Counted from the first letter of the stretch, positions 1,488-55,400 are shown. The stretch: DNA of 64,000 nt from Bacteroidota bacterium (GCA_013288325.1 JABDCB010000005.1:16484-80483), one strand, 5' to 3'. Numbers and translations are program-made. Notes: generated from the letters alone by a model not told the origin.

Positions 1488-3944
1488 ATGTGGAAATCCA
1501 TAGCCAGATTTATTCTTAGGAATAGGATAAAGTTTCTGATAGTTCTCGGAAGCATTACACTTGTTCTAGGCTATTTCAGCCGTACTGCTGAAATTTCTTA
1601 TGAATTCCCCAAATTATTACCTAGTACAGATACCACCGATATCAATTTTGAACGTTTCAAACATATGTTTGGTCAAGACGGGACGGTTATGGTTATCGGT
1701 ATTGCGGATTCCACCATATGGAAATATGATAAATTCTGCGGCTGGTATGATTTAACAGAAAGCTTGAGAAAAGTGGGGGGAGTCCAGGAAGTGGTTTCTA
1801 TTGCCAGGTTGTATAATCTTCGGGTTAATGATAGTACCAATAAGTTTGAATTCCGCCCAATTCTTTCTAAGCGCCCTCGTGATCAAGAAGAAGTCGATAG
1901 CATTCACCAGGTGGAAATGCGCTTGCCGTTTTACGAAAATTTCGCCTTTACCAAGAATACAGCATCTACTGTTATAGCTGTGACATTTGAAAAAAAAGTA
2001 GTCAATACCAAAGACCGTTTTCGTGTTGTAGATGAAATAAAAGCGCTCACTACAAAATTTTCGGATAAATTTTCTGTGCCCGTTCACTATTCTGGTTTGC
2101 CTTACATCCGATCGGTAATCGCAAAAAAGATTTCCCACGAAATGTTTCTCTTTATGGGGCTTGCCGTACTCGTTACGGCCATTATTCTATTCGTCTTTTT
2201 TCGTTCCATCCTACCAGTGGTTTTTTCGCTGATGGTTGTGGGGGTTGGTGTTTCCTGGGGACTAGGGGGACTTGTTTTATTTGGATATAAGATTACAGCC
2301 CTTACCGGACTCATTCCTCCACTGATTATTGTTATCGGTGTCCCCAATTGTATTTTACTTTTGAATAAGTATCATTCTGAATTTATCAGACACGGGAATA
2401 AGGGTCTGGCTTTGTTAAGAATGATAGAAAAAATAGGTCCTTCCCTATTCTTTGCTAATGTGACAACGTCTATTGGTTTTGCTGTATTCTGCCTTACCCA
2501 TAGTTCTATTATGATAGAATTTGGACTGGTTTCGTCACTAAATGTGATGGCCACGTACCTGATATCAATGATTTTGATACCTGTTATTTTTAGCTATCTG
2601 CCTCCTCCGTCCATTAAACATACCAGGCATTTGGATGCGAAACGATTAACAAAACTGCTTGCTAAAGTGGACATTGGTGTACATAGGCATAGAAGGAAAA
2701 TTTATGCTTCCGTTATTATTATCCTGCTGATTTCTTTATTTGGAATCATTAAGATAAAGACGCTGGGGTATGTAGTGGATGATTTACCGGAAAAGGATCC
2801 TATCTATTCAGACTTGCATTTTTTTGAAAAAAACTTTAAGGGAGTACTGCCTTTGGAAATTTCAATCGACACGAAAAAAGAAAATGGTGTTTTTGCTGAG
2901 AATGCGGATGTCCTTTATAGAATCGACCGGCTTCAAAAGGTTATAAAGGAATACGCGATTTTTTCAAAACCAATTTCTGTCGTGGAAGGGGTTAAATTTT
3001 CAAATCAGGCTATGAACGATGGCAAACCTAAATATTTTAGATTGCCAGGAGCTGAGGGATTATCTCAGATAAAAAAATATTCTTCGGAAGCAAAGGGTAA
3101 ACAAGACAGATTCAAAGCTTTTCTTGATTCTACCAAGCGTTATACAAGGGTGAGTATTCAGATGGCTGATATCGGATCCATAGAAATGAAAAAATTAATA
3201 AGCCGTTTTCAGCCTCGGGTTGACAGCGCTCTTAATTATGATGTGGAAGCAAAAGCCTGGTTGCCTAAGGAAAAGCGATGCGATTATTCGCTCACAGGCA
3301 CATGCCTTATGTTTCTGAAGGGAAATGATTTCCTTGTCGAGAACCTTGTGGAAAGTGTCGGTATTGCAGTTATACTCATTACGCTGGTTATGTTGAGTCT
3401 GTTTATGTCGTTCCGGATGGTAGTAATTTCTGTGGTGCCAAGTCTTGTTCCTTTGTTTATTACAGCCGCTCTGATGGGCTTTTTTCATATACATCTTAAG
3501 CCGTCTACCATCCTTGTGTTTAGCATTGCATTTGGTATTTCTTCAGACGGTACTATGTACTTTCTTACCAAGTACCGCCAGGAATTAAAGAATCATCAAT
3601 ACAGTATTTCACGCACTGTATCACTTGCTATCAGAGAGACAGGAGTAAGTATGATTTATACTGCTGTAATACTTTTTTGTGGTTTCGGAATATTTATGGC
3701 TTCGGATTTTGGCGGGACAGCCGCTTTAGGTATCCTTGTTTCAATTACTTTGTTAGTGGCTTATTGCTCCAATCTGGTGTTATTGCCATGTTTTCTATTA
3801 AGTCTGGAGAAGAGACTAACCAATAAGGCTTTTATGCAGGAGCCTTTGGTGCAGATCTATGATGAAGATGAGGATATTGAGCAGGAAGATTTGCACATTA
3901 TTCATCATATCAATAATGAATCGGGAACTAAAACTACTCTGTAA
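1488..3944 (+). CDS. MMPL/RND-superfamily membrane exporter
   Basis: 818 aa. Two clusters of hydrophobic helices are separated by large soluble loops, the typical 12-TM RND/MMPL layout. Confidence 0.8.
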
Positions 3945-4804
3945 TGAAAGGAATTATCCTAGCCGGAGGATCCGGAACGCGGTTGCACCCGCTTACACTG
4001 GCTGTTAGCAAACAGTTAATGCCAATTTACAATAAGCCAATGATCTATTACCCCCTTTCAGTTATGATGATGGCGGGTATAAAAGACATATTGATTATTT
4101 CCACTCCACATGACCTACCTAGTTTTGAACGATTACTGGGTGATGGAAAAAATCTTGGTTGTAATTTTCATTATGCAGTTCAGGAAGTACCCAATGGTCT
4201 AGCTCAAGCGTTTGTAATAGGAGAGAAATTTATTGGTAAGGAAAGTGTAGCCCTTATTCTTGGAGATAACATATTTTATGGGGCAGGCCTTGGCAGACTC
4301 TTGCAGCTTCATCAAAACCCGGAAGGGGGAGTTGTATTTGCGTATCATGTTTCGGACCCGGAACGTTATGGAGTTGTCGAGTTTGATAACGATGGTAATG
4401 CTATTTCTATAGAGGAAAAGCCAACAATACCTAAATCCAACTATGCTGTTCCAGGGCTTTATTTCTACGATAATTCGGTGGTTGAAATCGCGAAAAATCT
4501 CAGTCCCAGCCCAAGAGGTGAGTATGAAATAACGGATGTGAATAAACACTATCTGAAATCTGGAAAACTTAAAGTAGGGATACTCGACAGGGGTACAGCC
4601 TGGCTCGATACCGGCACTTTTGATTCCCTGATGCAGGCAGGGCAATTTGTTCAGGTTATAGAAGAACGGCAGGGATTAGGAATAGGCTGTATAGAAGAAG
4701 TTGCTTTTCGTATGGGATTCATTGATGTTGCCCAACTTAGAAAAATTGCAGAACCGTTGCTGAAAAGCGGCTATGGAAAATATCTTCTAAAACTTACGCA
4801 ATAA
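3944..4804 (+). CDS. rfbA: glucose-1-phosphate thymidylyltransferase
   Basis: N-terminus '[18 protein letters not shown]' plus RmlA-like sequence along the full length. The start overlaps the upstream stop (TAATG). Confidence 0.93.
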
Positions 4805-4812
4805 ACCACATT

Positions 4813-5763
4813 ATGAATTTACACAGTTATACCCGTATTCTTGTTACAGGAGGAGCTGGTTTTATTCCCAGCGGACTTGCTGATAAACTCGCTCAGAATC
4901 CTGATAATTATGTGGTCATGGTTGACAATCTTCAGACTGGCTCATTATCCAAGATCCCGGAGTCTCGTTTTCGAAATATTAAGTTTATTAAATGCGACGT
5001 AAATGAATTTCGGGATATCTCCAGCATTTTTTATGCCTATTCCTTCGATTATGTATTTCATTATGCTGCAACAGTGGGAGTAAAACGAACACTTGAAAAC
5101 CCGGTTAAGGTTTTAAATGACATTTCTGGAATCAAATATGTTTTGAATCTTTCAAAAAACACCGGTGTGAAACGAGTGTTTTTTTCTTCTTCCTCGGAGG
5201 TTTATGGCGAACCTGTTGAATATCCTCAAAATGAGGATACGACCCCGCTTAATTCCCGTTTGCCATATGCAATAGTCAAAAACGTTGGAGAAGCGTACCT
5301 TAAATCTTACCAAAAGGAGTTTAATCTTGATTATACCATTTTCAGATTCTTCAATACGTTCGGCCCTAAGCAAAGCCGGGATTTTGTTATTTCTAAATTC
5401 CTTTCTGCAGCATTGCACAATCAGGACATTCAAATATATGGAGATGGAAGCCAAACCCGAACATTTTGTTTTATTGACGATAATGTATTGGCAACAACCA
5501 ATGCTTTTTATCAGAATATGTTTGTAAATGATGTGGTTAACATTGGCGGTAATATTGAAACAAGTATTTTGGAACTGGCAACACTGATTATACGTCTTAC
5601 AAAGTCTAAATCGAAAATAATCCATCTCCCTCCATTAGAAGAAGGGGATATGACCCGCCGCAGGCCGGATACAACCAAAATGGTACAACTGTTGCATCGT
5701 AAATTATTGTCCCTTGAAGAGGGGCTTGAACTTGTGCTAAAAGACACCCGTTTTATACTTTAA
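4813..5763 (+). CDS. NAD-dependent sugar epimerase/dehydratase (SDR family)
   Basis: Rossmann motif 'VTGGAGFI' and catalytic YxxxK in 'YAIVK'. 316 aa. Confidence 0.85.
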   Translation: MNLHSYTRILVTGGAGFIPSGLADKLAQNPDNYVVMVDNLQTGSLSKIPESRFRNIKFIKCDVNEFRDISSIFYAYSFDYVFHYAATVGVKRTLENPVKVLNDISGIKYVLNLSKNTGVKRVFFSSSSEVYGEPVEYPQNEDTTPLNSRLPYAIVKNVGEAYLKSYQKEFNLDYTIFRFFNTFGPKQSRDFVISKFLSAALHNQDIQIYGDGSQTRTFCFIDDNVLATTNAFYQNMFVNDVVNIGGNIETSILELATLIIRLTKSKSKIIHLPPLEEGDMTRRRPDTTKMVQLLHRKLLSLEEGLELVLKDTRFIL

Positions 5764-5770
5764 TGGATTC

Positions 5771-6751
5771 ATGAGTAAGGCAAATGCATACCATGAGTTA
5801 ATTGAGGAGGGGCTCTCATCGATTAATTTTGCGAGCCGCCCGGTTGAATTGTACGAGCCTATGAAATATGTACTTGAAGTGGGTGGTAAGCGTATACGAC
5901 CTCTTCTTACATTGTTGGCTTGCGACTTATTTGAAGGAAGCTCAACAGAGGCTTTACCTGCAGCCCTTGCGATAGAGCTTTTCCATAACTTTAGCCTTGT
6001 GCATGATGATATTATGGATTGCGCGCCATTGCGAAGAAACAGGGCGACTGTACATGAAAAGTGGAATAGCAATATTGCTATACTTAGCGGAGATGCCTTG
6101 CTTATAAAAGCGTTGCAGCAGTTTGAAAAGCTGCCTTCTGAACTTATGGCTAAGGTTTTGCCAGTGTTTAATCTGACTGCATTAAAAGTATGTGAAGGAC
6201 AGCAGTTCGATATGAATTATGAGAAGCTGAGCCAGGTAAGTATTGCCGAATATATTCGAATGATAGAATTAAAGACTGCTGTGCTTCTTGCTGGTGCTTT
6301 GCAGATTGGGGCTTTAATCGGCAAAGCTACGACAGAAGACGCTGGCTTGATTTATGAGTTTGGAAGAAACATTGGTATTGCTTTTCAACTTCAGGATGAT
6401 TTGCTCGATATTTATGCCGATCCTGAAAAATTTGGAAAGCAACCGGGCGGAGATATAATTTCTAATAAAAAGACATTTCTTCTCCTCAAGGCATTAGAAA
6501 TGTCGGCCCAAATGCCATATAAACGCGAAGAGTTATTACATTGGATTGAGGCAAGCCCATTAGACCCTATGGAAAAGGTGGCTGCTGTGAAGGATATTTA
6601 TGATACGCTGCAAGTCCGTTCTCGAGCTAATGAAGAAATGAACCGTTATTATGAAAAAGGGCTGGAGGCCTTTGGCCGTATTTCTGTGGGAAAGGAGAAA
6701 AAAAATGATCTGTATAGCTTGGTAGAAAAATTAAGAATTAGGGAAATTTAA
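5771..6751 (+). CDS. polyprenyl diphosphate synthase
   Basis: Two Asp-rich motifs, 'LVHDDIMD' and 'QLQDDLLD'. 326 aa. Confidence 0.9.
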   Translation: MSKANAYHELIEEGLSSINFASRPVELYEPMKYVLEVGGKRIRPLLTLLACDLFEGSSTEALPAALAIELFHNFSLVHDDIMDCAPLRRNRATVHEKWNSNIAILSGDALLIKALQQFEKLPSELMAKVLPVFNLTALKVCEGQQFDMNYEKLSQVSIAEYIRMIELKTAVLLAGALQIGALIGKATTEDAGLIYEFGRNIGIAFQLQDDLLDIYADPEKFGKQPGGDIISNKKTFLLLKALEMSAQMPYKREELLHWIEASPLDPMEKVAAVKDIYDTLQVRSRANEEMNRYYEKGLEAFGRISVGKEKKNDLYSLVEKLRIREI

Positions 6752-7165: not shown

Positions 7166-7612
7166 TTGAGCTATAAACTGCGTATGCGATACAATATAAT
7201 TTTGATAGTCATTTTGTTTCACTGTGGCTTGTTTTATTTTAAAGCAACGGCATCGGTTCCTGTTGCTAATAAAGTGAAGATATTGGAATCAGGTGCTCGG
7301 TTTATTGATGGTCCATGTGATACCAGTAAAGGATCTTCTTGTATTACTATTCCGAATGTATTCAGCCCGAATAACGACGGCAAAAATGATGTTTTTAAAA
7401 TTACTTCTTCCGGATTGAAAGCAATGACCTGTGGTATATTTAACAGGTGGGGAGTTAAACTATGGGATCTGAAGGGTCCTGAAGAAAACTGGGATGGACG
7501 CGACCAGACGGGAATAGCATGTTCTACTGGTACTTATTTTTACATTCTTGATGCCGTTGGTGTGGATGGAAAGGCCTACCATCAGAGCGGGTTTGTAGAA
7601 CTTATACGGTAG
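7166..7612 (+). CDS. small secreted protein with T9SS type B (gliding-motility CHU_C-like) C-terminal sorting domain
   Basis: Motif 'IPNVFSPNNDGKNDVFKI' and a signal-like N-terminus. The ATG at 7184 is a more likely start than the TTG at 7166. Confidence 0.75.
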   Translation: MSYKLRMRYNIILIVILFHCGLFYFKATASVPVANKVKILESGARFIDGPCDTSKGSSCITIPNVFSPNNDGKNDVFKITSSGLKAMTCGIFNRWGVKLWDLKGPEENWDGRDQTGIACSTGTYFYILDAVGVDGKAYHQSGFVELIR

Positions 7613-26820: not shown

Positions 26821-28434
26821 ATGAAAAAATTCATTACCTTTTTTGTGTCTTTGTCAGCCGTTTTTAGCCTTGGAAAAGGAGCTTGTAATGCCCAGTCATC
26901 GGTTCCAACGCCGGTTAGTCCTTTATATGCCGCTGATATTACAGTAGAGTCTAATAATTTAGCCAACCAACGTAACGTAAAAATAGCTGCCGCCTCCAAT
27001 GGATGGCTTTTTGCAGCTTATCTGGTAAATGATTCAGTTTCCGGAAAAGGCGGTGTTGTGGTACGCTATTCCAAAAACGGAGGTATCAACTGGATGCCTT
27101 TCAATAATTATCCTTATTTCAGGCATTCTGAATACAAAGCATGTGATATCACGGTATCAGGTGCTGATACAAATCACCTGAATGTATTTGTTGGAGATGT
27201 TCGCATGGATCTGACAACCAAAAAATACGAAGTAGAAGTACAACGTTATATCAAAAATACAGCGTATCCATCGACAGAAGTATTCTTTCAGCAATTGGAT
27301 ACTAATCAGGTATATGATATAGCCCTGGCAAATAATTACCGTCAGATAACCAGCAAAGACTCCCTGTATAATGTGGGACTTATCTATTCCCATCGGGGAA
27401 TAGGAAAGGACTCGATTGTATTTGCAACGACAGAAAAGAAGCTGGCTAATAAATTCGGAAAGCCTGTTGTAATTGCCAATGCACCTCATTACCGCAAAGT
27501 GTCGCTGGCATATATGCATAGCAGTAGTATCCACGGCGCTTATTGTGCTGCATGGGAATTGCTTGATACTACATACAGCACCGTTGGTCATATCCAGTTT
27601 TCAAGAACAATAAGAAATCTTGATTCTGCCTGGAATAAACCAGTTTACCTGGATTCTCTTCTTTCGGCGACAACGGATAAAGTACGTAGCCCAAGTATTT
27701 CCTGCCAGTATAATGCTGCCGATAACGACAGTGCCAGTGCCAGCATTGCAGTATCGTATGATTATTACAATGGAAGCAATTTTGATATAATCGGAAGCTA
27801 CAACATGAGAGGTGATTCCACTAATTTCTGGAATTCATTTGTTATCGATAGCACGGGTCATAATGAAATACAGAGCAAACTGAGTTATGACCCTTTTGCC
27901 AATAATTTTGTGACCACTTTTTATGATTCCACATCAGGTGCATTACAGTATATGAGTCAGTCGGCTAATTTTACTACTCCCCGTACCTGGACCGTAAACA
28001 ATACCCAATACAACAACAATACGGCCAATCTGAAAGCGCCATGGCCGCAAGTGGTTATGAATCCATCTAACAACAAAGCATTCTTTGCATGGGTCATGGA
28101 TCCTTCCAACAATAATGGGGTGGTACTATGCGATGGAGAATATCTGTTTACCGGGATTTCAGAGCAAAGCATGAGCGGCTTTGATGTTTTAACCCCATAT
28201 CCTAATCCGGCCAATAGCGGGGCTTACCTGCCTGTTTCCAGTGATATTCCGGTAGTGCTTACCATTTCATTATACAATGCGATGGGGCAACTTATGAATA
28301 CAAGTACCGAACACATCGGTGGGGGCATTCAGTTGCTGGAACTAAATACGTCTACTTATGCTGCCGGTGTTTATTTCTGTCATATTGCAACAGCAGAAAA
28401 AACAATAACCCGTCGTTTGGTGGTTGAACACTAA
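26821..28434 (+). CDS. secreted protein with T9SS type A C-terminal sorting domain
   Basis: Signal peptide, a BNR-like 'YSKNGGINW', and a C-terminal domain of about 80 aa ('TPYPNPANSGAYL...GVYFCHI...RRLVVEH'). Confidence 0.75.
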   Translation: MKKFITFFVSLSAVFSLGKGACNAQSSVPTPVSPLYAADITVESNNLANQRNVKIAAASNGWLFAAYLVNDSVSGKGGVVVRYSKNGGINWMPFNNYPYFRHSEYKACDITVSGADTNHLNVFVGDVRMDLTTKKYEVEVQRYIKNTAYPSTEVFFQQLDTNQVYDIALANNYRQITSKDSLYNVGLIYSHRGIGKDSIVFATTEKKLANKFGKPVVIANAPHYRKVSLAYMHSSSIHGAYCAAWELLDTTYSTVGHIQFSRTIRNLDSAWNKPVYLDSLLSATTDKVRSPSISCQYNAADNDSASASIAVSYDYYNGSNFDIIGSYNMRGDSTNFWNSFVIDSTGHNEIQSKLSYDPFANNFVTTFYDSTSGALQYMSQSANFTTPRTWTVNNTQYNNNTANLKAPWPQVVMNPSNNKAFFAWVMDPSNNNGVVLCDGEYLFTGISEQSMSGFDVLTPYPNPANSGAYLPVSSDIPVVLTISLYNAMGQLMNTSTEHIGGGIQLLELNTSTYAAGVYFCHIATAEKTITRRLVVEH

Positions 28435-44301: not shown

Positions 44302-44553
44302 TTAATTCTCTGCGATCTCAAATTCATAAAACTCCATAATCTGGTTGCAGAGGAGTTTCTTACAGGCATCATCCACTTTTTTCCTGGCTTCGTCTTTTGA
44401 CCCGGCTTCCACTTCCAGGCTGATATGCTTGCCTATACGTACCTGTTGTATTTCGGCCAGTCCCAGGTTTTTCATGCTGCGTGTAACGGCTTTGCCCTGT
44501 GGATCCAGCAATGCTTTAAGCGGCATTACATCTATTTCAGCTCTGAATTTCAT
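44302..44553 (-). CDS. purS: phosphoribosylformylglycinamidine synthase subunit PurS
   Basis: 83 aa with 'LDPQGKAV' and the characteristic PurS length. Confidence 0.88.
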   Translation of the reverse strand: MKFRAEIDVMPLKALLDPQGKAVTRSMKNLGLAEIQQVRIGKHISLEVEAGSKDEARKKVDDACKKLLCNQIMEFYEFEIAEN

Positions 44554-45388
44554 TTCCGCGTTTGTTTAGAAGATTATTTACAATGGATAAAAAGATGTAC
44601 AAAAATAAGATAATAGGGATAGCGAGATAGAGGAATATTATCAACAATACCAAGGCGCTTAGGATGAACAAATAACGAAGTTCATTGCCTTTCCACCCGA
44701 AATTTTTGAATTTAAGGGCAAACAAGGGAATAGGAGCCACCAGCAAAAAGGATTGAAGAACAGTCAAACCAATCAGGAACCAGGGAGTGAGAATGTATTC
44801 GGAAAGCCTGGAGCTGGGCTCCACGGCATTGATAGCCAGTTTAAAAATAGAAAGAGGAGCAGGGGTGCCTGTTACATCGGGTGAGGGGAGGTGTAAAAAA
44901 AGCGGAATGGAACAAATCAAAATCGTATTGGCCGGCGTGGGTAAGCCAATAAAAGAATCATGCTGACGGGGATCGATATTAAAGTTGGCCAGACGAAGTG
45001 CAGAGAATATAGTGACCAGGAATCCGCAAAATGGAAGCCACATGGGGTAGGGATTACCGGCCTGCATATCGCCGTTAAATAAATTGCCCAGATCAAAATG
45101 AGCAATGGTATGTTGTAAAATACTGAGACTGATTAGCTGAAACAACATCACCCCGGGCAGGAATCCAAAGCTCACCATATCGGCCAGCGAATCCAGTTGT
45201 TTCCCAAATTCACCGCTCACTCCCAGCATACGGGCAAACAAGCCATCAAAAAAGTCGAGGAATGCAGCCAGCCCTACCATATAAGCGGCCCACACCAGAT
45301 TGCCCTGAAAAGCAAATACCACCCCCAGACAACCGCAAAAAAGATTGCCGCAGGTAATGCTATTGGGAACAAAGGCTTTGAAATTCAC
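44537..45388 (-). CDS. pssA: CDP-alcohol phosphatidyltransferase (phosphatidylserine synthase-like)
   Basis: Motif 'DFFDGLFARMLGVSGEFGKQLDSLADMV' (DGx2ARx8Gx3Dx3D). Confidence 0.75.
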   Translation of the reverse strand: MNFKAFVPNSITCGNLFCGCLGVVFAFQGNLVWAAYMVGLAAFLDFFDGLFARMLGVSGEFGKQLDSLADMVSFGFLPGVMLFQLISLSILQHTIAHFDLGNLFNGDMQAGNPYPMWLPFCGFLVTIFSALRLANFNIDPRQHDSFIGLPTPANTILICSIPLFLHLPSPDVTGTPAPLSIFKLAINAVEPSSRLSEYILTPWFLIGLTVLQSFLLVAPIPLFALKFKNFGWKGNELRYLFILSALVLLIIFLYLAIPIILFLYIFLSIVNNLLNKRGNEIQS

Positions 45389-45492: not shown

Positions 45493-46932
45493 TTACAATC
45501 CCGTATTTTCATAAAGAACCAAATACACCTCCCCCTCCCTAAACTCTTTGACCAGCTTCCATTTCGTTTTTATTTCTTCTATCTGAGGCAGCAAATCCGT
45601 ATTACAAACATTGGAGTGGAGGTAGTAATGAAATTTACTGACGGGTCCATCGAGTGCGTTGGTATAATGACAGTTGAAATCGAAATAGGCGATTATATCC
45701 GGAGTAGAACCTGGGCTCAGATAAGTTTCGGCAGGAGAATAGATCAAAGGGAATTGTGTTCCGATATTATAAGGAGACAGCTGTTTGTCTCGCAAGCTAT
45801 GCGTATAGATATATTCCCTCATTTGTTGTTCCAGGCTAAAGAAGGGTAATACTTTCAAACTGGTATCCCATTCATTACTGAGTCGTTCGGGATAGATCCA
45901 GAAATTGCCACTTACTAAAACGATAGCGATTAGCAATACAGAGATTCTCTGATAAGTAGTTTTCCATTGTTGTATCAGATAACAAACTGGCAGGATAAGT
46001 AATGCAAATACCGGCATGAAATACCGTGCACCGATGGGGTTGGAAAGGGGGATGAGCAATAGGGAGAAAAAGAAAAGAGGAGGCAGGAGCAGGCGCAGGA
46101 GGCGGTAAAAAACGGGATCCTTGGAACCGGCTTTTCGGAAATAGACAATGGCTGCAGCCAGAAAAAGCCAGAGGATGATTCGTCCGGAATCAGCCAGTTT
46201 CCAGAGTACAAGCATGACATGTTTTAGCATGATGGTTATGCTCACGCCATGTTCATCCGTTTTTTCTCTCCACGGGGAAAAGAAATACCAGCCTGTAACA
46301 GCGTGATGATACAGAAACCACACTGCGCTAAAGACAAATACAGGCAGCCAGGCAAACACTTTGTTTTTATTCCATCGTTCGGAAGGAGAGGCGAACAGGA
46401 AATCCATAATCAGCAAGGAAGCTGCTGCCGGCAATCCGCGCATATTGCAAAAGACCAGCAGGATAAGAAAGATGGAGAACAACAGCCGTTTGTTTTCCAA
46501 CAAGGCCATCAATGCCAGCAGAAAAAATGCCAGGAGCATCAGATCCGGTGCTGCCAATATACTTTGGGTAATGAAACAAGGCTCGAGAAATAATAACAAC
46601 AGGGCAACCGAAAGCATGGTATTGTTCAAAAACCGCCGGCCTATGCGATAAAAAGCAAATACACTGCCCAGCAAAAAAGGAAGCAAGGCGAGATGGACAG
46701 ACAAAAGACCGGTGCCGCATAACCGGAAAAAAAGAGATAGCCAGGCAGCATAAAAAGGAAAGCCTCCTGTATCCAATGATTCGGGAATATGAAAAGGGGT
46801 AAACTCCTTTCCGCCTTTTAATACCGGCAGGGCATAATACACACTATCCCAGAAAAGCGGAATGCCTGAAGCGACAAGAGTAAGCAGGAGACAGATCAGA
46901 AAAGCAAGGGCCAACGGAAGATTAAGCTTCAT
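45493..46932 (-). CDS. polytopic membrane protein, ArnT/GT-C-like (function unknown)
   Basis: 479 aa with 10 or more hydrophobic helices and a soluble C-terminal domain of about 130 aa. I found no diagnostic motif. Confidence 0.5.
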   Translation of the reverse strand: MKLNLPLALAFLICLLLTLVASGIPLFWDSVYYALPVLKGGKEFTPFHIPESLDTGGFPFYAAWLSLFFRLCGTGLLSVHLALLPFLLGSVFAFYRIGRRFLNNTMLSVALLLLFLEPCFITQSILAAPDLMLLAFFLLALMALLENKRLLFSIFLILLVFCNMRGLPAAASLLIMDFLFASPSERWNKNKVFAWLPVFVFSAVWFLYHHAVTGWYFFSPWREKTDEHGVSITIMLKHVMLVLWKLADSGRIILWLFLAAAIVYFRKAGSKDPVFYRLLRLLLPPLFFFSLLLIPLSNPIGARYFMPVFALLILPVCYLIQQWKTTYQRISVLLIAIVLVSGNFWIYPERLSNEWDTSLKVLPFFSLEQQMREYIYTHSLRDKQLSPYNIGTQFPLIYSPAETYLSPGSTPDIIAYFDFNCHYTNALDGPVSKFHYYLHSNVCNTDLLPQIEEIKTKWKLVKEFREGEVYLVLYENTGL

Positions 46933-47092: not shown

Positions 47093-48181
47093 ATGCTGAA
47101 ATCCAATAAATTACTCCTTGCCGGTCTTTTTTGTTTAACCGCGTTATTTTCTGTTGGTCAAACCAGTGCTCCTAAGTATAGTAATGAGTTTCTGGATGTT
47201 GGGGTAGGTGCACGGGCCTTGGGAATGTCAAATGCTCAGGTGGCATCGGTCAATGATGTAACTGCAGGCTATTGGAATCCAGCTGGTCTTACCGGTATCA
47301 CCACCACATTCAGCCTGGGGCTGATGCACAGCGAATATTTTGCCGGTATTGCCAAATACGATTACGCCGGTTTTGCCAAACGGATTGATACCAACAGTGT
47401 ATTTGCCGTAAGTATGATTCGTTTTGGGGTGGATAATATCCCGAATACCACCGAACTTATTGATGCCAATGGAAATGTAAACTATGATAATGTAAGCACG
47501 TTCAGCTCGGCCGATTATGCCTTTTTGCTTTCCTATGCCCGTGTGACCAAGATAAAGGGACTACGCTATGGAGGCAACGTTAAGATCATCCGTCGTGTGG
47601 TTGGTGATTTTGCCGGGGCCTGGGGTTTTGGTTTTGATCTGGGTGCACAATACGATTATAAGAAATGGAAGTTCGGGGCCATGTTCAGGGATGTGACATC
47701 TACCTTCAACGCCTGGAGTTTTAACCTGAGTGATGCCATGATACAAGCCTTTAAGCAGACACTTAACACGTTGCCAACAAACTCCGTGGAGGTAACACTC
47801 CCCCGTATGCTTTTAGGTGCAGCGCGGAAATATGAATTCGGAAACGGACGCTACTCCATTATGCCGGAAGTGGATGTGGATGTTACATTTGACGGACAGC
47901 GGAATGTGTTGCTGCATTCATCTGCTGCCAGTGCCGATCCGCATATGGGGATAGAAGCAGGATATAAAAACATGATTTTCCTTCGCGGAGGAATCGGTAA
48001 TATTCAAACAGAAACAGATATTTCGGGGAATAAGTTTACCAGTTTTATGCCCAACATTGGTGTAGGGATAAAATTCAAAGCTTTTACCCTTGATTACGCA
48101 CTGACAGATATAGGCGATCAAAGTGTTGCCTTATATTCCAACGTATTTTCCCTTAAACTCGATCTTAATCACCGTAACTAA
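47093..48181 (+). CDS. PorV/PorQ-family outer-membrane beta-barrel protein (T9SS-associated)
   Basis: Signal peptide, then 'VGARALGMSNAQVASVNDVTAGYWNPAGL', the PorV/PorQ N-terminal signature. Alternating beta-strand pattern and an aromatic-rich C-terminus. Confidence 0.75.
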   Translation: MLKSNKLLLAGLFCLTALFSVGQTSAPKYSNEFLDVGVGARALGMSNAQVASVNDVTAGYWNPAGLTGITTTFSLGLMHSEYFAGIAKYDYAGFAKRIDTNSVFAVSMIRFGVDNIPNTTELIDANGNVNYDNVSTFSSADYAFLLSYARVTKIKGLRYGGNVKIIRRVVGDFAGAWGFGFDLGAQYDYKKWKFGAMFRDVTSTFNAWSFNLSDAMIQAFKQTLNTLPTNSVEVTLPRMLLGAARKYEFGNGRYSIMPEVDVDVTFDGQRNVLLHSSAASADPHMGIEAGYKNMIFLRGGIGNIQTETDISGNKFTSFMPNIGVGIKFKAFTLDYALTDIGDQSVALYSNVFSLKLDLNHRN

Positions 48182-48186
48182 TTCAA

Positions 48187-51100
48187 ATGGGAAAGAAGTA
48201 CCCTGTCGCACTTCTCTTCTTGCTTTGGGCTCTCCCGATCTTATCACAGACATTCGGGAATGAGTGGATCAACTATTCCCAAAAATATTATAAAATACTG
48301 GTAACCCGCGACGGGATTTATCGCCTCGATTCCGCCACACTGGCCAATGCCGGCGTTCCGCTTGCCACGGTAAACCCCAAACACATGCAGATTTTTGGCA
48401 GGGGTAAAGAACAATATATTTATATCAAAGGCGAATCGGATGGTGTTTTCAATACCACCGATACCCTTGAATTCTATGGCAAAGCCAATGACGGTTTTTT
48501 GGATTCCGCCTTATACAATGGCGCTACCGCACCCAACCCCTATGTAAGTCTCTTCAACGATACTGCCGTGTATTACCTTACCTGGAACAGTTCCCTGAAC
48601 AACCTGCGTATGGTAAACGGTACGGATACAACCTTCAGCTCTGTGCATACGCCCAATCCGTTTATGTATAAACAGGATATCAGCGCTTTTCGGGGAGATT
48701 ATTTTCAGGGTACCACGGATTATAATAACATCACCGATCCGGAATACCTGCCCATGGAAAGTATCGTGTGTACAACCATCTATTACGGAGGAAGTATTAC
48801 GGCGAATATGAATACCGCCAACCCTTATACGGGTGCGGCACCAGCCCAGAAAACACATTTGCAGGCAAGGGTTTCAACACGATCCAACGATTTTTCCGTC
48901 TACCCCGATTATCAGATACAAATCAACTATCCCGGTTCTGTGTATACCAAGTATGTGGATGGATATACCACTTTTTTGCTCGATACGTTGCTTCCCACAT
49001 CTTCACTTCCTACTGTTGCTCCCAGTGTCACTACCAGCCCTGTTACTCTTTACAGCATTAACCCCGGTACCAGTGTTTCCAGCGGTGATGCAGCGTTTGT
49101 GTATGTAAGCATCAGATATCCGCATACCATGGACCTGGAAGGGCTCAGCGAATTCAAAATGTATGTGCCTGCCAACGGAGCTCCTAATAAGTCCTATCTC
49201 AATCTGACCGATTTCAATACCTCCGGATCTACCATGCGGTTTTATGATCTCACGTATCATCGCCGTATTCAACCGGTGTTTGCAGGTAGTAAATACCAGG
49301 TGTTAATCAGCGACAGCCTTGGAGCGGAAAAATTCTGTTATGTAACAAGCGATAATAATACCCAGCATGTTACTTCGCTGATTCCTGTAAATGGTAATGG
49401 CTATTTCACCAATTATCATCTTCAATCCGGCGATTCGGCATTTGTGATTGTGACCAATGCCTTGTTATGGTCTTCGGCAGAATCCTATAAGCTATACCGC
49501 AGCTCGGTACAGGGTGGAGCCAATCATGTGGTGCTGGCCGATGTAGCCGATCTGTATGATCAGTTTGCCTATGGTATCCGCATGCACCCTTTATCCATCC
49601 GCCGTTTCTGCAGCTATTTGATGAATACCTATCCTTCTAAACCTAAATACCTGTTCCTGATCGGTAAATCGATAGATGCTTATCGCATGCAGTTCAGTCC
49701 TTTCCCTATCACAGCACTGGTGCCTACCATTGGTTATCCTCCCAGTGATAATTTGTTTACCAGCAAGCTGATCGGTAACAGTTACGCTCCCTCGTTTGCC
49801 ACCGGTCGTATTGCCTCCATGACCAATACGGATGTAATGACCTATCTGAATAAGGTAACAGCTTATGAGCAGAATGCGGCAGCATCCTGGATGAAACAGG
49901 TATTGCATTTTGGTGGAGGTGATAATAGCAGTGAACAAATCCAATTTAAAAACTATCTGACTAATTTCAAAACCATTATAGAAGCCGATACAAATTATGG
50001 CGGGCATGTCACTTCTTTTTACAAAACCTCCAGCGCGCCCATTCAGATTAACCAAAGCGATTCGCTGAAGCAGATTATCGATAATGGAGTAAGCATTATG
50101 ACATTTTTCGGACATGCTTCCGGAAGCGGTTTTGACCAAAGCATTGACGATCCATCCAACTATAATAATGCACCCCGTTTCCCGCTTATCATTGCCAACT
50201 CCTGTTATGCAGGAAATATTCATACGTATCCAGCCAGCACCAGCGAAAAATTTATCAATATCAACCGGGGGGCCATTGGTTTTGTGGCCAGCACGTACCT
50301 TGGTATTGCAACTGAATTATATCCCTATACCACCGGTCTTTACCGCGATCTGGCCCGTTATGATTATGGAAAAAGCATCGGGAAGCATATCCAATATGCC
50401 GTAAAAGCAAGAGAAGCGATGGGCGGTTTCGGGCTGTATGCAAAAACCACCTGTCTCACGATGACACTGGACGGAGATCCTTCTGTTGTTATTGCTTCGC
50501 CCCGTTTGCCCGATTATGCCATTACCAACCCGGATGTTAGTTTTGATACGCATTCCAATCCCGATTCGGTTACGGTGATAGCCCTTATGCATAACAACGG
50601 AAAAGCAATCCGGGATTCGTTTTTTGTGCATCTGCTTCGTAAGTATCCAAACGGTGATACCGATACCTATCGCAAATATGTAAAAGCCCCGGCCTGGGAA
50701 GATTCGGTGAAATTTAAAATACCCGTTGATTTTAACCGGGGACTTGGGTTAAACAAAGTATCGGTGATACTTGATTTTACCAACCGCATACGGGAAATAA
50801 CCAAGTCCAATAATTCCACTACCGATGTGGATCTGTTGTTGCAGGGTAGCTCTATCTTACCTGTCTGGCCGTATAATGACGCCATTTATCCCTATGATAC
50901 AGTCACGCTGAAATCGTCCACTGCCAATGCGCTGGAGCCGGCGCACAACTACAGGATACAGTTTGATACAACGGATAGCTATAACAGTCCGTTTGCAAAG
51001 ACTGCAATTCTCTTAAATAAGCCCGGGGGGGTAATTACATGGAAGCCTCCCGTAGCACACCTGACTGATAGTGTGGTTTATTACTGGCGCATTTGCCCCG

Positions 51101-53247
51101 ATACGGTGGGTACTACCAGCAAGGCCCGCTGGAAAGAAAGTTCGTTTCAATACATCACCAATAAAAGAGGGTGGGAGCAAGCTCACTTTTTCCAGTTTAA
51201 GAATGATGCTTATCAGTTTGTGAAATTTGTGCGTATCGGTCGCAAATTCACTTTTGTGAATGATCTGAAAACTGTTGAAATCAATAATGCCATCATGGCT
51301 TTTAATGGACACGACTGGCCGGATGTGAATTACAAGATCAACGGAACCACCATGGAAGAATCTTCCTGTGCCATCCCTGGTTTTTCTTTTGCAGTTATCA
51401 ATCCGGTGAGTCTGGCCCCCTGGGGTTTTGACACCCTATGTACCACGAATATCTCATTGCCTTATGTAGACCCACGAACCAATAATACCGTTTGTGTTTG
51501 CAATACACCGCTTTATGCCTATGATTTTTATGATGCTCCGGGGTCTCAGCAGTTAGGTATGTTAGGATTTCTGAATGCGATACCAAACGGATATTATGTA
51601 CTGGGCTTTTCCAATGCCACAGCGGGAGCGTATGATTCCGTTAATACCTATTCTGCATCTCTTCTTAATTCATTTAGAAACCTGGGATGTCATCTCATCA
51701 CAAGCGGAGGAGTCGGCACCCATAACTCGTATGTGTTCCTTGGCAGAAAAGGAGCGCCGGCCAATAGCGCAAAAGAACTTATATCGTCCAATGAAGGGCA
51801 GAAAATTACTCTGGATTCAACGCTGAGTACCAACTGGAATTCAGGATATATTGCTTCCGAAGTAATTGGTCCCGCCAAAAGCTGGGATGAGTTTCACCTC
51901 CGGATGAAACACCTGGAAGTGCCCGATTATGACAGTGTGGTGATTCGTGTGGTGGGGATTAATGCTGCGGGCACACAAGTAACCCTGGCCAATCTTTCGG
52001 ATACCACCAGGGATATGTATAACCTGGCCAGCTATGTAAATGCTGCCATTTATCCCTATATCCGTTTGGTGGCTTATATGAGCGATGATACCAACCGTAC
52101 GCCGGCACAGCTTAAACGCTGGCAGGTGATTTATACCCAGGCCCCTGAAATGGCCGTAAACCCTGCCCTGAATTTTAGCTTTGTAAAGGATACCACACAG
52201 GAAGGATCTACCATTACGATGACCTGCGCGGTGCAGAATATAAGCGACAGGAATTTTTCCACTACTGATTCCTTGCAGATCAATTACTGGATCATGGATA
52301 AAAACCATGTGCGGCACAATCTGGTGCTGGCTAATGGCAAGACTTTTAAATTACGCAAGCCTCCGTTTAATGCAGGTGCCTGGTTTATAGATACGGTACA
52401 TATTGTTACCACCGGATATCCTGGCCTTAATACCTTCTGGATGGAAGCCAATCCGCTTTCCACTGTCCACACACAAAATGAACAATTCCATTTCAATAAC
52501 CTGGTTGAGAAACAGTTTTATGTGACCGGCGACAAGGTAAACCCATTATTGGATGTAACTTTTGACGGGGTTCATATTCTGGACGGTGATCTGGTATCAG
52601 CCAAACCGAATATCCTCATCAGTCTGAAAGATGAAAATCAGTTTCTGGCTTTGAATGATACATCCGATTTCAAATTGTTTATTCAGAATCCGAATGCAAC
52701 GACGGTGCAACCTGTTTATTTCAGAAATCAGATTACGTTTACTCCTGCTGTACTGCCCAAAAACAGTTGCCGTTTAAACTACACCCCTACATTGACAGCG
52801 GATGGTATATATGCTTTAATTATACAAGCCAAGGATAGATCCAACAATGCCAGCGGCGCTATCGATTATCAGATCCATTTTGATGTGGTCAACCACGCTT
52901 CTATTACCAATGTGATGAATTACCCGAACCCGTTCAGTACGGCTACACACTTTGTGTTTACCATTACAGGTTCGCAGGTGCCTACGATGTTCCGAATTCA
53001 GATTATTACGGTAACCGGAAAGCTGGTGAGAGAGATAGAACGCGATGAGCTGGGTTCGCTGCATATAGGCAGAAACATAACCGAATATGCCTGGGACGGC
53101 AGAGATCAGTTTGGAGACCGCCTGGCCAACGGTGTTTATTTTTACAGAGTACTCACGAAAATCAATTCAGAAAACATTGAGCATATGGATAGTGGGGCCG
53201 ATGACTATTTTAAAAATGGGTATGGCAAGATGTATCTGATGAGGTAA
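48187..53247 (+). CDS. very large PorU-like C25 (gingipain-type) cysteine peptidase
   Basis: N-terminus 'GNEWINYSQKYYKILVTRDGIYRL'. His/Cys dyad context 'FFGHASGSG' (His643, codon 50113-50115) and 'IANSCYAGN' (Cys673, codon 50203-50205). C-terminal Ig/CTD-like 'NYPNPFS...GVYFYRVLTK'. Confidence 0.8.
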   Translation: MGKKYPVALLFLLWALPILSQTFGNEWINYSQKYYKILVTRDGIYRLDSATLANAGVPLATVNPKHMQIFGRGKEQYIYIKGESDGVFNTTDTLEFYGKANDGFLDSALYNGATAPNPYVSLFNDTAVYYLTWNSSLNNLRMVNGTDTTFSSVHTPNPFMYKQDISAFRGDYFQGTTDYNNITDPEYLPMESIVCTTIYYGGSITANMNTANPYTGAAPAQKTHLQARVSTRSNDFSVYPDYQIQINYPGSVYTKYVDGYTTFLLDTLLPTSSLPTVAPSVTTSPVTLYSINPGTSVSSGDAAFVYVSIRYPHTMDLEGLSEFKMYVPANGAPNKSYLNLTDFNTSGSTMRFYDLTYHRRIQPVFAGSKYQVLISDSLGAEKFCYVTSDNNTQHVTSLIPVNGNGYFTNYHLQSGDSAFVIVTNALLWSSAESYKLYRSSVQGGANHVVLADVADLYDQFAYGIRMHPLSIRRFCSYLMNTYPSKPKYLFLIGKSIDAYRMQFSPFPITALVPTIGYPPSDNLFTSKLIGNSYAPSFATGRIASMTNTDVMTYLNKVTAYEQNAAASWMKQVLHFGGGDNSSEQIQFKNYLTNFKTIIEADTNYGGHVTSFYKTSSAPIQINQSDSLKQIIDNGVSIMTFFGHASGSGFDQSIDDPSNYNNAPRFPLIIANSCYAGNIHTYPASTSEKFININRGAIGFVASTYLGIATELYPYTTGLYRDLARYDYGKSIGKHIQYAVKAREAMGGFGLYAKTTCLTMTLDGDPSVVIASPRLPDYAITNPDVSFDTHSNPDSVTVIALMHNNGKAIRDSFFVHLLRKYPNGDTDTYRKYVKAPAWEDSVKFKIPVDFNRGLGLNKVSVILDFTNRIREITKSNNSTTDVDLLLQGSSILPVWPYNDAIYPYDTVTLKSSTANALEPAHNYRIQFDTTDSYNSPFAKTAILLNKPGGVITWKPPVAHLTDSVVYYWRICPDTVGTTSKARWKESSFQYITNKRGWEQAHFFQFKNDAYQFVKFVRIGRKFTFVNDLKTVEINNAIMAFNGHDWPDVNYKINGTTMEESSCAIPGFSFAVINPVSLAPWGFDTLCTTNISLPYVDPRTNNTVCVCNTPLYAYDFYDAPGSQQLGMLGFLNAIPNGYYVLGFSNATAGAYDSVNTYSASLLNSFRNLGCHLITSGGVGTHNSYVFLGRKGAPANSAKELISSNEGQKITLDSTLSTNWNSGYIASEVIGPAKSWDEFHLRMKHLEVPDYDSVVIRVVGINAAGTQVTLANLSDTTRDMYNLASYVNAAIYPYIRLVAYMSDDTNRTPAQLKRWQVIYTQAPEMAVNPALNFSFVKDTTQEGSTITMTCAVQNISDRNFSTTDSLQINYWIMDKNHVRHNLVLANGKTFKLRKPPFNAGAWFIDTVHIVTTGYPGLNTFWMEANPLSTVHTQNEQFHFNNLVEKQFYVTGDKVNPLLDVTFDGVHILDGDLVSAKPNILISLKDENQFLALNDTSDFKLFIQNPNATTVQPVYFRNQITFTPAVLPKNSCRLNYTPTLTADGIYALIIQAKDRSNNASGAIDYQIHFDVVNHASITNVMNYPNPFSTATHFVFTITGSQVPTMFRIQIITVTGKLVREIERDELGSLHIGRNITEYAWDGRDQFGDRLANGVYFYRVLTKINSENIEHMDSGADDYFKNGYGKMYLMR

Positions 53248-53260
53248 AATGTATTGAACT

Positions 53261-53707
53261 ATGAACCGATATTTTCTTTTCTTCCTGGTGTTTTGTTTTT
53301 GTTTCACTTCCTGTATTATTCGCTCTCCTAAGTTTGCTTCTCTCGATCAGGCTTTTGCTGTTAAACCTGGAATGACGCTGGAGCAGGTAAATACCACGTT
53401 GGGGATAACACCTTATGCATTGCGGTCCAAGACAGACAGTGCGACGGTTTATGTTTATAAATACAGAACGATGGAGCGAAGGACAGCGCCTCTGCTTCGA
53501 AAAAGGACAAATGGGGTAAAAGCCACCGGCCCGTTAATGGATCTGAATGTGACCTATAATTCAAAATCGGTTGTCACGGCACTGAAATCGAAACCCTCTC
53601 CTAAAGAAGAGAAGAGCCAATATACCATCGATGTCAACTCGGTTTTTACTTTATTAACGGTAACAGCTCCGGCATTATTGGTTTATCTGGGACTTCAGCA
53701 TAACTAG
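53261..53707 (+). CDS. BamE/SmpA-OmlA-like lipoprotein with hydrophobic C-terminus
   Basis: Lipobox 'CFTSC', 'VKPGMTLEQVNTTLGITPY', and a terminal hydrophobic 'VFTLLTVTAPALLVYLGL'. Confidence 0.55.
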   Translation: MNRYFLFFLVFCFCFTSCIIRSPKFASLDQAFAVKPGMTLEQVNTTLGITPYALRSKTDSATVYVYKYRTMERRTAPLLRKRTNGVKATGPLMDLNVTYNSKSVVTALKSKPSPKEEKSQYTIDVNSVFTLLTVTAPALLVYLGLQHN

Positions 53708-53759: not shown

Positions 53760-55400
53760 GTGAATTTCAGGCATCCTCTTTTTTTGGTTCTTCTAAGCGG
53801 TCTGCTTTTTGGTTTTTCCTGGCCGGAAACAGGCGGGCTAACCTTTCCTGTTTTTTTTGCATTCGTTCCCTTGCTTCTTCTGGAGCGTCAATTATCGGTG
53901 TCTACTCGTAAATACCGTTCCTGGAAATTATTCTTACTATCCTATCTAGCCTTTTTTATCTGGAACCTGATCAGTACCTGGTGGGTAAAGAATGCTTCTT
54001 TCGGAGGAGCTATGCTGGCATTTATATTCAATACCCTGTTTATGGCTCTGGTGTTTCAGGCCTACCATATTACCATGAAGCGTTTGTCGCTCCGTTTTGC
54101 CTTTCTGGTATTAACGTGCTATTGGATGGGGTTTGAATTTCTACACCTGCGTTGGGATCTTACCTGGCCCTGGCTCACACTAGGAAATGTATTTGCCTCC
54201 AAACCCTGGATGATTCAGTGGTATGAATATACCGGAGTATTCGGCGGAACGCTGTGGGTGTTTGGCATCAACTTCCTCATATTCCATTTTTTACTGAAGT
54301 ATAGAAAGGAAACGAATCCAGTTTTCAGATCATCTATCCGTTTGGCTTTTTTACTTCGTTTGGGAGCCATGTTGTTGTTACCCATTTTGATTTCCTTTTG
54401 TATCGGGTGGATGGAGATCTTTCCATCGGTGATGGGTGATGCAGGAAAGAGGAAAAATGTGGTCATTGTGCAGCCGAATATAGATCCTTATCACGAAAAA
54501 TTTAACGGAACCTATAAGGATCAGCTTGGCAGGATGCTGAATCTGGCCGAAACAGAAATAGATACAAATACCTGTTGCGTGGTTTTTCCGGAAACAGCTA
54601 TTCAGGAAAACCTTTGGGAGAATGATATTGAGCGCAGCTATAGCGTTCATACGTTACGTTATTTTCAGGACAAACATCCGGGGTTGGATATTGTAATAGG
54701 GGCTACCTCCGGGTATCAGTATATGCCGGGAGAGAAACGATCTCCTACAGCCCGCAAATTCACCGATAGCGATGAGTATTATGAAGATTATAACACCGCC
54801 CTGATGATGTCCGGTAAAGGCCCTTTGCAGATTTATCACAAGTCCAAGTTTGTGCCGGGCTCCGAGCGAATGCCTTTTCCTGCTTTGTTCAAGCCACTCG
54901 AAAAATATGCGATTGACCTGGGTGGAACCACAGGTTCGTTGGGAGAGCAGGAGGAGAGGACTGTTTTTAAATCCACTCAGCATACGTTAAAGGTTGCTCC
55001 GGTGATCTGTTATGAATCTGTTTTTGGAGAATATGTAAGCGATTATATTAAAAACGGAGCCAATGTTATTTTCATCATTACCAACGACGGATGGTGGGGT
55101 GATACTCCCGGCTATCAACAACATCTGGATTATGCACGTTTGAGGGCCATTGAAACAAGACGTTGTATAGCTAGGTCGGCTAATACCGGCACCTCCTGTT
55201 TTATCGACGAAATGGGAGCTGTTTCACAGGCTACCTCCTGGTGGAAGCCTGGAGCTATCAAAGGTGTTGTGAATGAGCACAGCGAGTTGACGTTTTATGT
55301 AAAACATGGCGATTATATGGCCCGTTTGGCTATCGTGTTGGGAGGGATCCTGTTAGCCTGGAGCGTGATTATCCGTATCAGAGCGTTTAAAAAGTCATAA
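53760..55400 (+). CDS. lnt: apolipoprotein N-acyltransferase
   Basis: N-terminal multi-TM region plus a nitrilase-like domain ('VVFPETA', 'KSKFVPGSERMP', 'ICYESVFG'). GTG start. Confidence 0.9.
   Translation: MNFRHPLFLVLLSGLLFGFSWPETGGLTFPVFFAFVPLLLLERQLSVSTRKYRSWKLFLLSYLAFFIWNLISTWWVKNASFGGAMLAFIFNTLFMALVFQAYHITMKRLSLRFAFLVLTCYWMGFEFLHLRWDLTWPWLTLGNVFASKPWMIQWYEYTGVFGGTLWVFGINFLIFHFLLKYRKETNPVFRSSIRLAFLLRLGAMLLLPILISFCIGWMEIFPSVMGDAGKRKNVVIVQPNIDPYHEKFNGTYKDQLGRMLNLAETEIDTNTCCVVFPETAIQENLWENDIERSYSVHTLRYFQDKHPGLDIVIGATSGYQYMPGEKRSPTARKFTDSDEYYEDYNTALMMSGKGPLQIYHKSKFVPGSERMPFPALFKPLEKYAIDLGGTTGSLGEQEERTVFKSTQHTLKVAPVICYESVFGEYVSDYIKNGANVIFIITNDGWWGDTPGYQQHLDYARLRAIETRRCIARSANTGTSCFIDEMGAVSQATSWWKPGAIKGVVNEHSELTFYVKHGDYMARLAIVLGGILLAWSVIIRIRAFKKS

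Follow-up and report, generated by a model that had tools for sequence, protein, structure and literature searches.

A PorV-like barrel and a PorU-like peptidase encoded side by side

The locus described here lies in a stretch of 64,000 nucleotides (hereafter, the window) from a Bacteroidota bacterium (GCA_013288325.1, JABDCB010000005.1:16484-80483), which is part of a 59.6% complete metagenome-assembled genome (MAG) of an uncultured soil member of the Bacteroidia, and encodes a barrel and a peptidase related to PorV and PorU, which are type IX secretion system (T9SS) proteins, followed by a small lipoprotein. Open reading frame (ORF) calling revealed three ORFs on the plus strand, at positions 47093-48181 (gene 1, 362 amino acids), 48187-53247 (gene 2, 1686 amino acids) and 53261-53707 (gene 3, 148 amino acids) of the window, with spacings of 5 and 13 nt between them and 52 nt between gene 3 and the following gene, lnt, which is itself separated by 30 nt from lpdA. 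These ORF sizes, the 5 and 13 nt gaps and the sequence motifs quoted in an initial annotation of the window were all reproduced by our analysis. The surroundings of the three genes are of housekeeping character, and include tatC, lptB, purS, a pssA-like gene, lnt, lpdA, sucA, a cyanophycin synthetase gene and recQ. Scans for sigma-70 promoters and terminators returned background-level counts, and were uninformative on operon structure.

Gene 1 (plus strand, 47093-48181) encodes a predicted outer-membrane beta-barrel of the PorV/PorQ family with a Sec signal peptide, and matches the NCBIfam model NF052325 (PorVQ2, "putative type IX sorting system protein PorV2") with 503.6 bits, well over the cut-off of 325, whereas it reaches only 41 bits on the canonical PorV model NF033710 (cut-off 250). 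Its match to Pfam PorV scores 30.8 bits, and it weakly matches the solved PorV of Flavobacterium johnsoniae (6h3i_F; E 8.6e-5). Similarly, gene 2 (plus strand, 48187-53247) encodes a PorU-like C25 cysteine peptidase and putative transpeptidase whose match to NF052324 (PorU_rel_Nterm, "putative type IX secretion system sortase PorU2"; cut-off 450) reaches 683 bits, with residues 9-876 aligned on model positions 5-879, as opposed to 187.6 bits on the canonical PorU model NF033707, which has a cut-off of 420. We refer to the two proteins as PorV2 and PorU2 below. The PorU2 family, uniform in length (about 1660-1700 amino acids), comprises at least 899 proteins and is already named "putative T9SS sortase PorU2", and its partner "PorV2", in NCBIfam, RefSeq and UniRef. 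That is, reading the two genes as a paralogous pair is not new, and the locus is an ordinary further member of a catalogued family, with which it shares gene order, length and domain make-up and from which it shows no substantive difference; both proteins align with the family models (NF052324 and NF052325) from end to end. Our literature search found no study of the PorU2/PorV2 paralogue, the family models being annotation-only.

Catalytic dyad and domain architecture of PorU2

The signal peptide of PorU2 (positions 48187-48246, plus strand) reads MGKKYPVALLFLLWALPILS and is directly followed by Gln21, which is invariant in an alignment of 15 family members. Judging by Bacteroidota signal peptides in general, the peptide is presumably cut before this residue. 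The Peptidase C25 catalytic domain (Pfam PF01364, 186.9 bits) spans residues 419-767 (positions 49441-50487), and a profile built from the same 15-member alignment aligns this region with residues 407-787 of Porphyromonas gingivalis PorU (6za2_A). The latter was the only solved structure that the profile matched (E 3.7e-10), and the profile was needed to find it, as a phmmer search of the full-length PorU2 against the PDB gave no match. In the resulting alignment, the "FFGH" of PorU2 falls on the "YAGH" of 6za2 (that is, on the histidine of "YAGHGG") and "ANSC" falls on "TATC" (the cysteine of "TATCDF"), which places the catalytic residues at His643 (positions 50113-50115) and Cys673 (positions 50203-50205), exactly as numbered in the initial annotation. 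Both residues are invariant across the 15 aligned family members. Further, when 20 canonical PorU and 33 PorU2-type sequences were aligned jointly, the first column is histidine in 53/53 sequences and the second is cysteine in 52/52 covering sequences, so the dyad aligns with the catalytic residues of PorU both in the profile comparison to 6za2 and in this larger alignment. The residues around the dyad differ between the two types, with "FFGH[SA]" and "N[SG]C" in PorU2 vs. "GHGG" and "TATC" in PorU. The catalytic domain family and the dyad are also shared with the gingipain-type C25 peptidases (PF01364), but PorU2 differs from the latter in its PorU-like N-terminal domains, its obligatory pairing with a barrel gene, and in showing no sign of degradative specificity.

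The canonical PorU model aligns with PorU2 only over residues 31-774 and approximately 1446-1663, and residues 775-1445 (positions 50509-52521, plus strand) stand in for about 135 model positions; therefore, PorU2 is longer by about 535 residues in the stretch from the C25 domain to the C-terminus. The AlphaFold2 model of this insert, which is of high confidence (predicted local distance difference test, pLDDT, 89.2; predicted template modelling score 0.78), shows a chain of beta-sandwich domains (CARDB/FN3/macroglobulin-like), within which an ILEI/FAM3-like alpha/beta domain occupies residues 1111-1190 (positions 51517-51756). Pfam matches among the family members are consistent with this assignment, with ILEI matched in 27/73 members and CARDB in 20/73. 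A Foldseek search with the 671-residue insert retrieved only generic multi-beta-sandwich (macroglobulin- or complement-like) chains, at TM-scores of 0.22 or less, and no second enzymatic fold was evident among these matches. The insert is followed by a C-terminal region of PorU type (positions 52522-53244, plus strand; NF033707 positions 873-1083), which ends in a type A-like C-terminal sorting domain (CTD; residues ~1579-1686) and aligns with the CTD of the solved PorU (residues 1038-1137). A paralogue in Phnomibacter scores 56.5 bits on the type A CTD model TIGR04183.

A second pair that coexists with canonical PorU and PorV

The initial annotation had proposed that the window encodes a second, paralogous PorV/PorU-type pair rather than the core one, and our results bear this out. 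A canonical PorU (629 bits on NF033707) is encoded on a separate contig of the same MAG (labelled C25), its ORF being truncated by the contig end, so that the window pair is not the only one in the genome. The composition of the contig falls within the bin, and the contig ends at the usual position of porV, as judged from the porU-then-porV order in the genomes labelled G401, G402, G403, G409 and G412. Canonical PorV was not found in the window's MAG, at its 59.6% completeness; it is present in 20/20 relatives. Moreover, all 15 high-quality relatives carry canonical PorU together with one PorU2, and four genomes of the same genus likewise have both types. Three genomes of the window's genus (G405, G406 and G409) carry, besides one PorU2, two canonical PorU genes of full length.

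In a maximum-likelihood tree built on the shared N-terminal and C25 region, PorU and PorU2 fall on opposite sides of a branch that has 100% support in the Shimodaira-Hasegawa-like approximate likelihood ratio test (SH-aLRT), with the window protein nested within PorU2 and genomes carrying both types represented on both sides of the split. The presence of canonical PorU in the same genome and of both types in the relatives, together with this split, indicates that PorV2/PorU2 is an ancient paralogue of the canonical T9SS pair. Full-length PorU2-like proteins of other classes of the phylum (about 1650-2440 amino acids; 240-440 bits on NF052324, below its cut-off, e.g., G288:C51:32690-35239 and G129:C19:32376-34895) take a basal position on the PorU2 side, which shows that the curated NF052324 model under-calls the family.

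Compared to the canonical pair (PorU, 6za2; PorV, 6h3i), the window pair has the same PorV-family barrel, PorU-type N-terminus, C25 domain with the aligned dyad and a C-terminal CTD that is putatively of the retained type. It differs in its scores on the canonical models, which are below cut-off, in forming a separate clade, in its reversed gene order with the barrel gene first, and in the extra beta-sandwich and ILEI-like domains of PorU2. The statement in the initial annotation that canonical PorU is several hundred residues shorter and precedes porV agrees with what we observed in other genomes, where canonical PorU frames are 1076-1427 amino acids long. Finally, most genomes with PorV2/PorU2 also have the canonical pair; in some, PorV2/PorU2 stands in for PorU (see below).

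Distribution and coupling of the two genes

Scanning a one-genome-per-species collection returned at least 588 relatives of PorU2, including proteins from Crocinitomix algicola, Fluviicola taffensis, Terrimonas ginsenosidimutans, Saprospiraceae and Bacteroidales MAGs. When 400 Bacteroidota genomes of at least 90% completeness were sampled, PorU2 was above cut-off in 53/401 and canonical PorU in 272/401; among the window's relatives, PorU2 was above cut-off in 19/21. One PorU2 match (G254:C3:277109-279757) contains in-frame TGA and TAG codons and may represent a pseudogene; canonical PorU is also present in that genome.

The coupling between the two genes is strong. Of 80 distant PorU2 loci (81 in the clustering of flanking genes), 65 have a co-oriented PorV2 gene as the immediate upstream neighbour of PorU2, and contig ends truncate most of the others. 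The junction is typically an overlap of 4 nt or less or a gap of 26 nt or less, in line with the 5 nt gap in the window, and the gene downstream of PorU2 varies among the 80 loci. In a few Chitinophagales loci (L052, L065, L072, L083 and L084; at about 5150-5890), a protein of 218-226 amino acids is encoded directly 5' of PorV2 with the same orientation, and in most cases the two genes overlap or are a few nt apart. This protein had no match in Pfam or NCBIfam and may be a lineage-specific third component.

Chitinophagaceae genomes with PorU2 as the only PorU-type enzyme

Canonical PorU is lacking, every candidate having been scored, from 11 of the 47 fully complete, PorU2-positive genomes in the window's class. 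All 11 are Chitinophagaceae (with the loci L132-L134 and L137-L139), based on the tree and on protein names; one of them is the closed genome of Phnomibacter sp. MR (G038), and the relatives of another (G158) are labelled Puia. A stand-alone canonical porV is present in 10 of the 11, along with PorV2 and one or two copies of PorU2, and no PorU remnant was seen beside porV in the three of these genomes that were inspected. The four PorU-less genomes that were checked for cargo contain 7, 26, 47 and 66 type A CTD genes. That is, PorU2 is the sole PorU-type enzyme in these genomes with type A cargo, which constitutes the best indirect evidence that it works as a CTD peptidase or sortase. Accounting for these gene contents, the data suggest that PorU2 is such a working enzyme rather than a specialized accessory.

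Where a second PorU2 copy is present, the two copies flank a single PorV2 (e.g., PorU2b-PorV2-PorU2a on contig C7 of G346). PorU-less Chitinophagaceae had two PorU2 copies more often (6/11 vs. 1/8), a trend that is not significant (one-sided Fisher p ~0.08) and is based on genomes that are not phylogenetically independent.

Proposed function and alternative explanations

The current model of how T9SS cargo is sorted, and specifically of whether it is released or attached to the surface, rests almost wholly on the PorU/PorV/PorZ/PorQ complex of P. gingivalis. PorU is described as a peptidase with catalytic Cys and His that removes CTDs and joins the cargo to anionic lipopolysaccharide (A-LPS) by a sortase-like mechanism, and keeps its own CTD, so that it stays bound to PorV (PMC10202324). 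Against this background, a widespread second pair of sortase-like type is of interest.

Our preferred interpretation, which we consider likely, is that PorV2-PorU2 is a paralogous, second T9SS pair of sortase type that acts on cargo, and that gene 3 is unrelated to it. Under this model, PorU2 would be exported via Sec and subsequently via the T9SS using its own type A-like CTD, which would be kept, as in PorU, and by which the enzyme would dock at the cell surface on the barrel formed by PorV2. The CTDs of T9SS cargo would then be cleaved by the C25 domain through a thioester intermediate, and the cargo would be either released or ligated to an amine-bearing acceptor of the envelope. The approximately 535 extra residues, i.e., a beta-sandwich stalk with a lectin-like domain of ILEI/FAM3 type, would probably serve to place the enzyme or to hold the acceptor glycan. 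Several points weigh against this interpretation. The properties assigned to PorU2 here (cleaving CTDs, transpeptidation, docking to PorV2 and keeping its own CTD) are all inferred by analogy with PorU, and our search for published experiments on PorU2 or PorV2 found none, the name matches in the literature being artefacts of superscript citations. In addition, the CTD of the window's PorU2 scores 21.4 bits on the type A model TIGR04183, slightly under the cut-off of 23, and any role given to the insert is a guess, its Foldseek matches being generic only. Cultured and fully sequenced bacteria are available with both systems (Fluviicola taffensis, Crocinitomix algicola and Terrimonas ginsenosidimutans) as well as with PorU2 only (Phnomibacter sp. 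MR), which makes clean genetic tests of the role of PorU2 possible.

The initial annotation had tentatively linked the pair to a particular cargo class, proteins with type B CTDs, and this link was not sustained. Export of type B CTDs is reported to need PorP/SprF and not PorV, and these CTDs are probably not cleaved (PMC10202324). The PorV-free route of type B export, taken together with the type A CTD genes of the genomes that have only PorU2, argues against a dedicated type B role.

It is also tempting to speculate, although we regard this as rather unlikely, that PorU2/PorV2 forms a self-sufficient T9SS attachment machine, in which PorU2 would by itself be a full CTD peptidase and sortase, the ILEI/FAM3-type domain takes over the acceptor-presenting role of PorZ and PorU becomes replaceable, as in Chitinophagaceae of the Phnomibacter and Puia type. 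Cargo would in this case be ligated to a non-canonical envelope glycan or glycolipid, built or decorated by the products of neighbouring genes (described below), i.e., the GT-C-like protein together with an ArnC/PgfS-like glycosyltransferase of family 2 (GT2), the MBOAT and DltD-like proteins, and Acyl_transf_3.

Alternatively, PorU2 might be a gingipain-like degradative protease, either secreted or anchored to the surface, that serves nutrition or adhesion, is itself T9SS cargo with its own shuttle or anchor in PorV2, and processes no other cargo. The C25 family does include degradative proteases, PorU2 bears its own CTD, its long stalk of beta-sandwich and lectin-like domains recalls adhesin and protease architectures, and the literature search returned no functional study of PorU2. 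We nonetheless consider this scenario improbable because the N-terminal 774 residues of PorU2 match the PorU sortase model over their full extent, i.e., beyond the C25 core, and PorU is the sole solved structure matched by the family profile. Further, PorU2 occurs as a single copy of uniform length and, across orders, is strictly coupled to a barrel of the PorV family, and it is the only PorU-type enzyme in the four checked PorU-less genomes, with their 7-66 type A cargo genes.

A different view of the locus, close to that of the initial annotation, is that genes 1 to 3, perhaps with lnt as a fourth, act as a single unit that serves type B CTD cargo, with the BamE-like lipoprotein of gene 3 and Lnt helping to assemble or lipidate the PorV2/PorU2 complex. 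The genes do share a strand and are separated by 5, 13 and 52 nt, the arrangement is kept in the nearest relatives, and lnt is found 3' of PorU2 in 16/81 loci. However, no relative of the 148-amino-acid protein was detected in any of the 80 distant PorU2 loci, and gene 3 is also absent from a close relative (L130) with a 62%-identical PorU2 and otherwise the same synteny, in which lnt comes 67 nt after PorU2. Relatives of gene 3 beside PorU2 are confined to the closest PorU2 relatives (e.g., L129), and two distant members of its family that were looked up lie in unrelated genomic contexts. Since, in addition, lnt is a single-copy housekeeping gene that adjoins the pair in a minority of loci, and type B export is reported to proceed through PorP/SprF, without PorV and probably without cleavage (PMC10202324), we consider such a unit highly improbable; the three-gene module is thus not upheld, and gene 3 was rejected as its third component.

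Finally, the notion that the window pair is simply the only, and hence canonical, PorU/PorV system of the genome, for which the missing canonical PorV of the MAG might be cited, is already refuted by the 629-bit canonical PorU on a contig that is compositionally part of the bin and cut where porV usually follows, by the low completeness (59.6%) of the MAG, and by the relatives, which have canonical PorV in 20/20 cases and, where of high quality, both sortase types in 15/15.

The BamE-fold lipoprotein and the flanking genes

Gene 3 (plus strand, 53261-53707) encodes a predicted BamE-fold lipoprotein with a C-terminal transmembrane helix. It scores 21.3 bits on Pfam BamE (PF04355), under the gathering score of 23.2, and several relatives have a precomputed Pfam BamE match. 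The core of the AlphaFold2 model is well predicted (pLDDT 85-90), and the best Foldseek matches are BamE chains of E. coli (5d0o_E, E 2e-4, TMt 0.68; range 0.6-0.68). Hence, the protein is, according to its predicted structure, a genuine BamE-fold lipoprotein. Like BamE (SmpA/OmlA) of the BAM complex, it has an N-terminal lipobox and an alpha-alpha-beta-beta-beta core, but it differs from BamE in scoring below the Pfam cut-off, in being only ~21% identical and in its extra, highly conserved C-terminal transmembrane helix. Within the family, which is small (~48 clusters at E<=1e-10 in an exhaustive profile search), the lipobox cysteine (Cys18) is invariant and the hydrophobic C-terminal segment FTLLTVTAPALLVYLG (residues 125-147, positions 53633-53701) is the most conserved stretch. 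A lipoprotein that is additionally anchored by its tail is unusual. Based on the gene's distribution, it is a recent, lineage-specific insertion between porU2 and lnt, with no conserved link to the pair.

The next gene, lnt (plus strand, 53760-55400; TIGR00546, 234.9 bits), encodes apolipoprotein N-acyltransferase. It is single-copy in the MAG, and among the 16 loci with lnt in the PorU2 flank it directly adjoins PorU2 in five. We consider it a housekeeping neighbour that recurs 3' of PorU2 in a minority of lineages. On the other side of the pair, the minus strand encodes a pssA-like CDP-alcohol phosphatidyltransferase (44537-45388; TIGR00473, 94.1 bits, cut-off 107), as part of a block with the order tatC-(829 aa)-lptB-pssA|PorV2-PorU2. 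Clustering of the flanking genes at the 81 loci showed pssA-like genes to be the commonest after PorV2 (38 loci), followed by lnt (16), lptB (14) and tatC (8), and the pssA-like gene is divergent from PorV2 and adjoins it in about 30 loci. We examined the pssA-like gene as a candidate for a dedicated synthase of an anchor lipid, in the style of archaeosortase systems, and rejected it: pssA is single-copy and far from PorV2 in G038, G158, G006, G346 and G403, from which it follows that the adjacency reflects housekeeping synteny.

Between the pssA-like gene and PorV2, and divergent from the latter, the minus strand also encodes a GT-C-like polytopic membrane protein (45493-46932), with a weak match to Pfam PMT_2 (18.2 bits), which holds the same position in the close relatives L129 and L130. 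At four further loci (L010, L013, L019 and L056; e.g., L019:11924-14881), the pair, in part with lnt, is accompanied by a member of this family and an ArnC/PgfS-like GT2, usually with a protein of 200 amino acids. In the window's MAG, the GT2 and the 200-amino-acid partner are on another contig (C66:1702-3233), and the GT-C-like gene alone adjoins PorV2. The GT-C-like protein is possibly a functional associate of the pair, outside its core. Other membrane enzymes were observed at comparable positions, namely an MBOAT/DltB-like protein (TIGR04091, 111.9 bits, below cut-off) with a DltD/DUF1574-like protein, encoded directly 5' of PorV2-PorU2 and in the same direction in L009, L011, L014, L018, L020 and L028 (at about 3500-5900 in each), and an Acyl_transf_3 gene beside the pair in L041. 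It is suggestive that the slot beside the pair repeatedly holds differing membrane enzymes of the periplasmic face, an observation that feeds the idea of a different acceptor glycan mentioned above.

With respect to the cargo, the four ORFs with sorting domains listed in the initial annotation exist, with type A CTDs on those starting at 26821, 56836 and 60642 and a type B CTD on the one at 7166. The type B ORF (7166-7612) is only 148 amino acids long with a TTG start, and may represent a fragment or a mis-started gene. Across the MAG as a whole, at least 90 type A CTD matches were obtained in spite of the 59.6% completeness, which indicates that the organism depends heavily on the T9SS.

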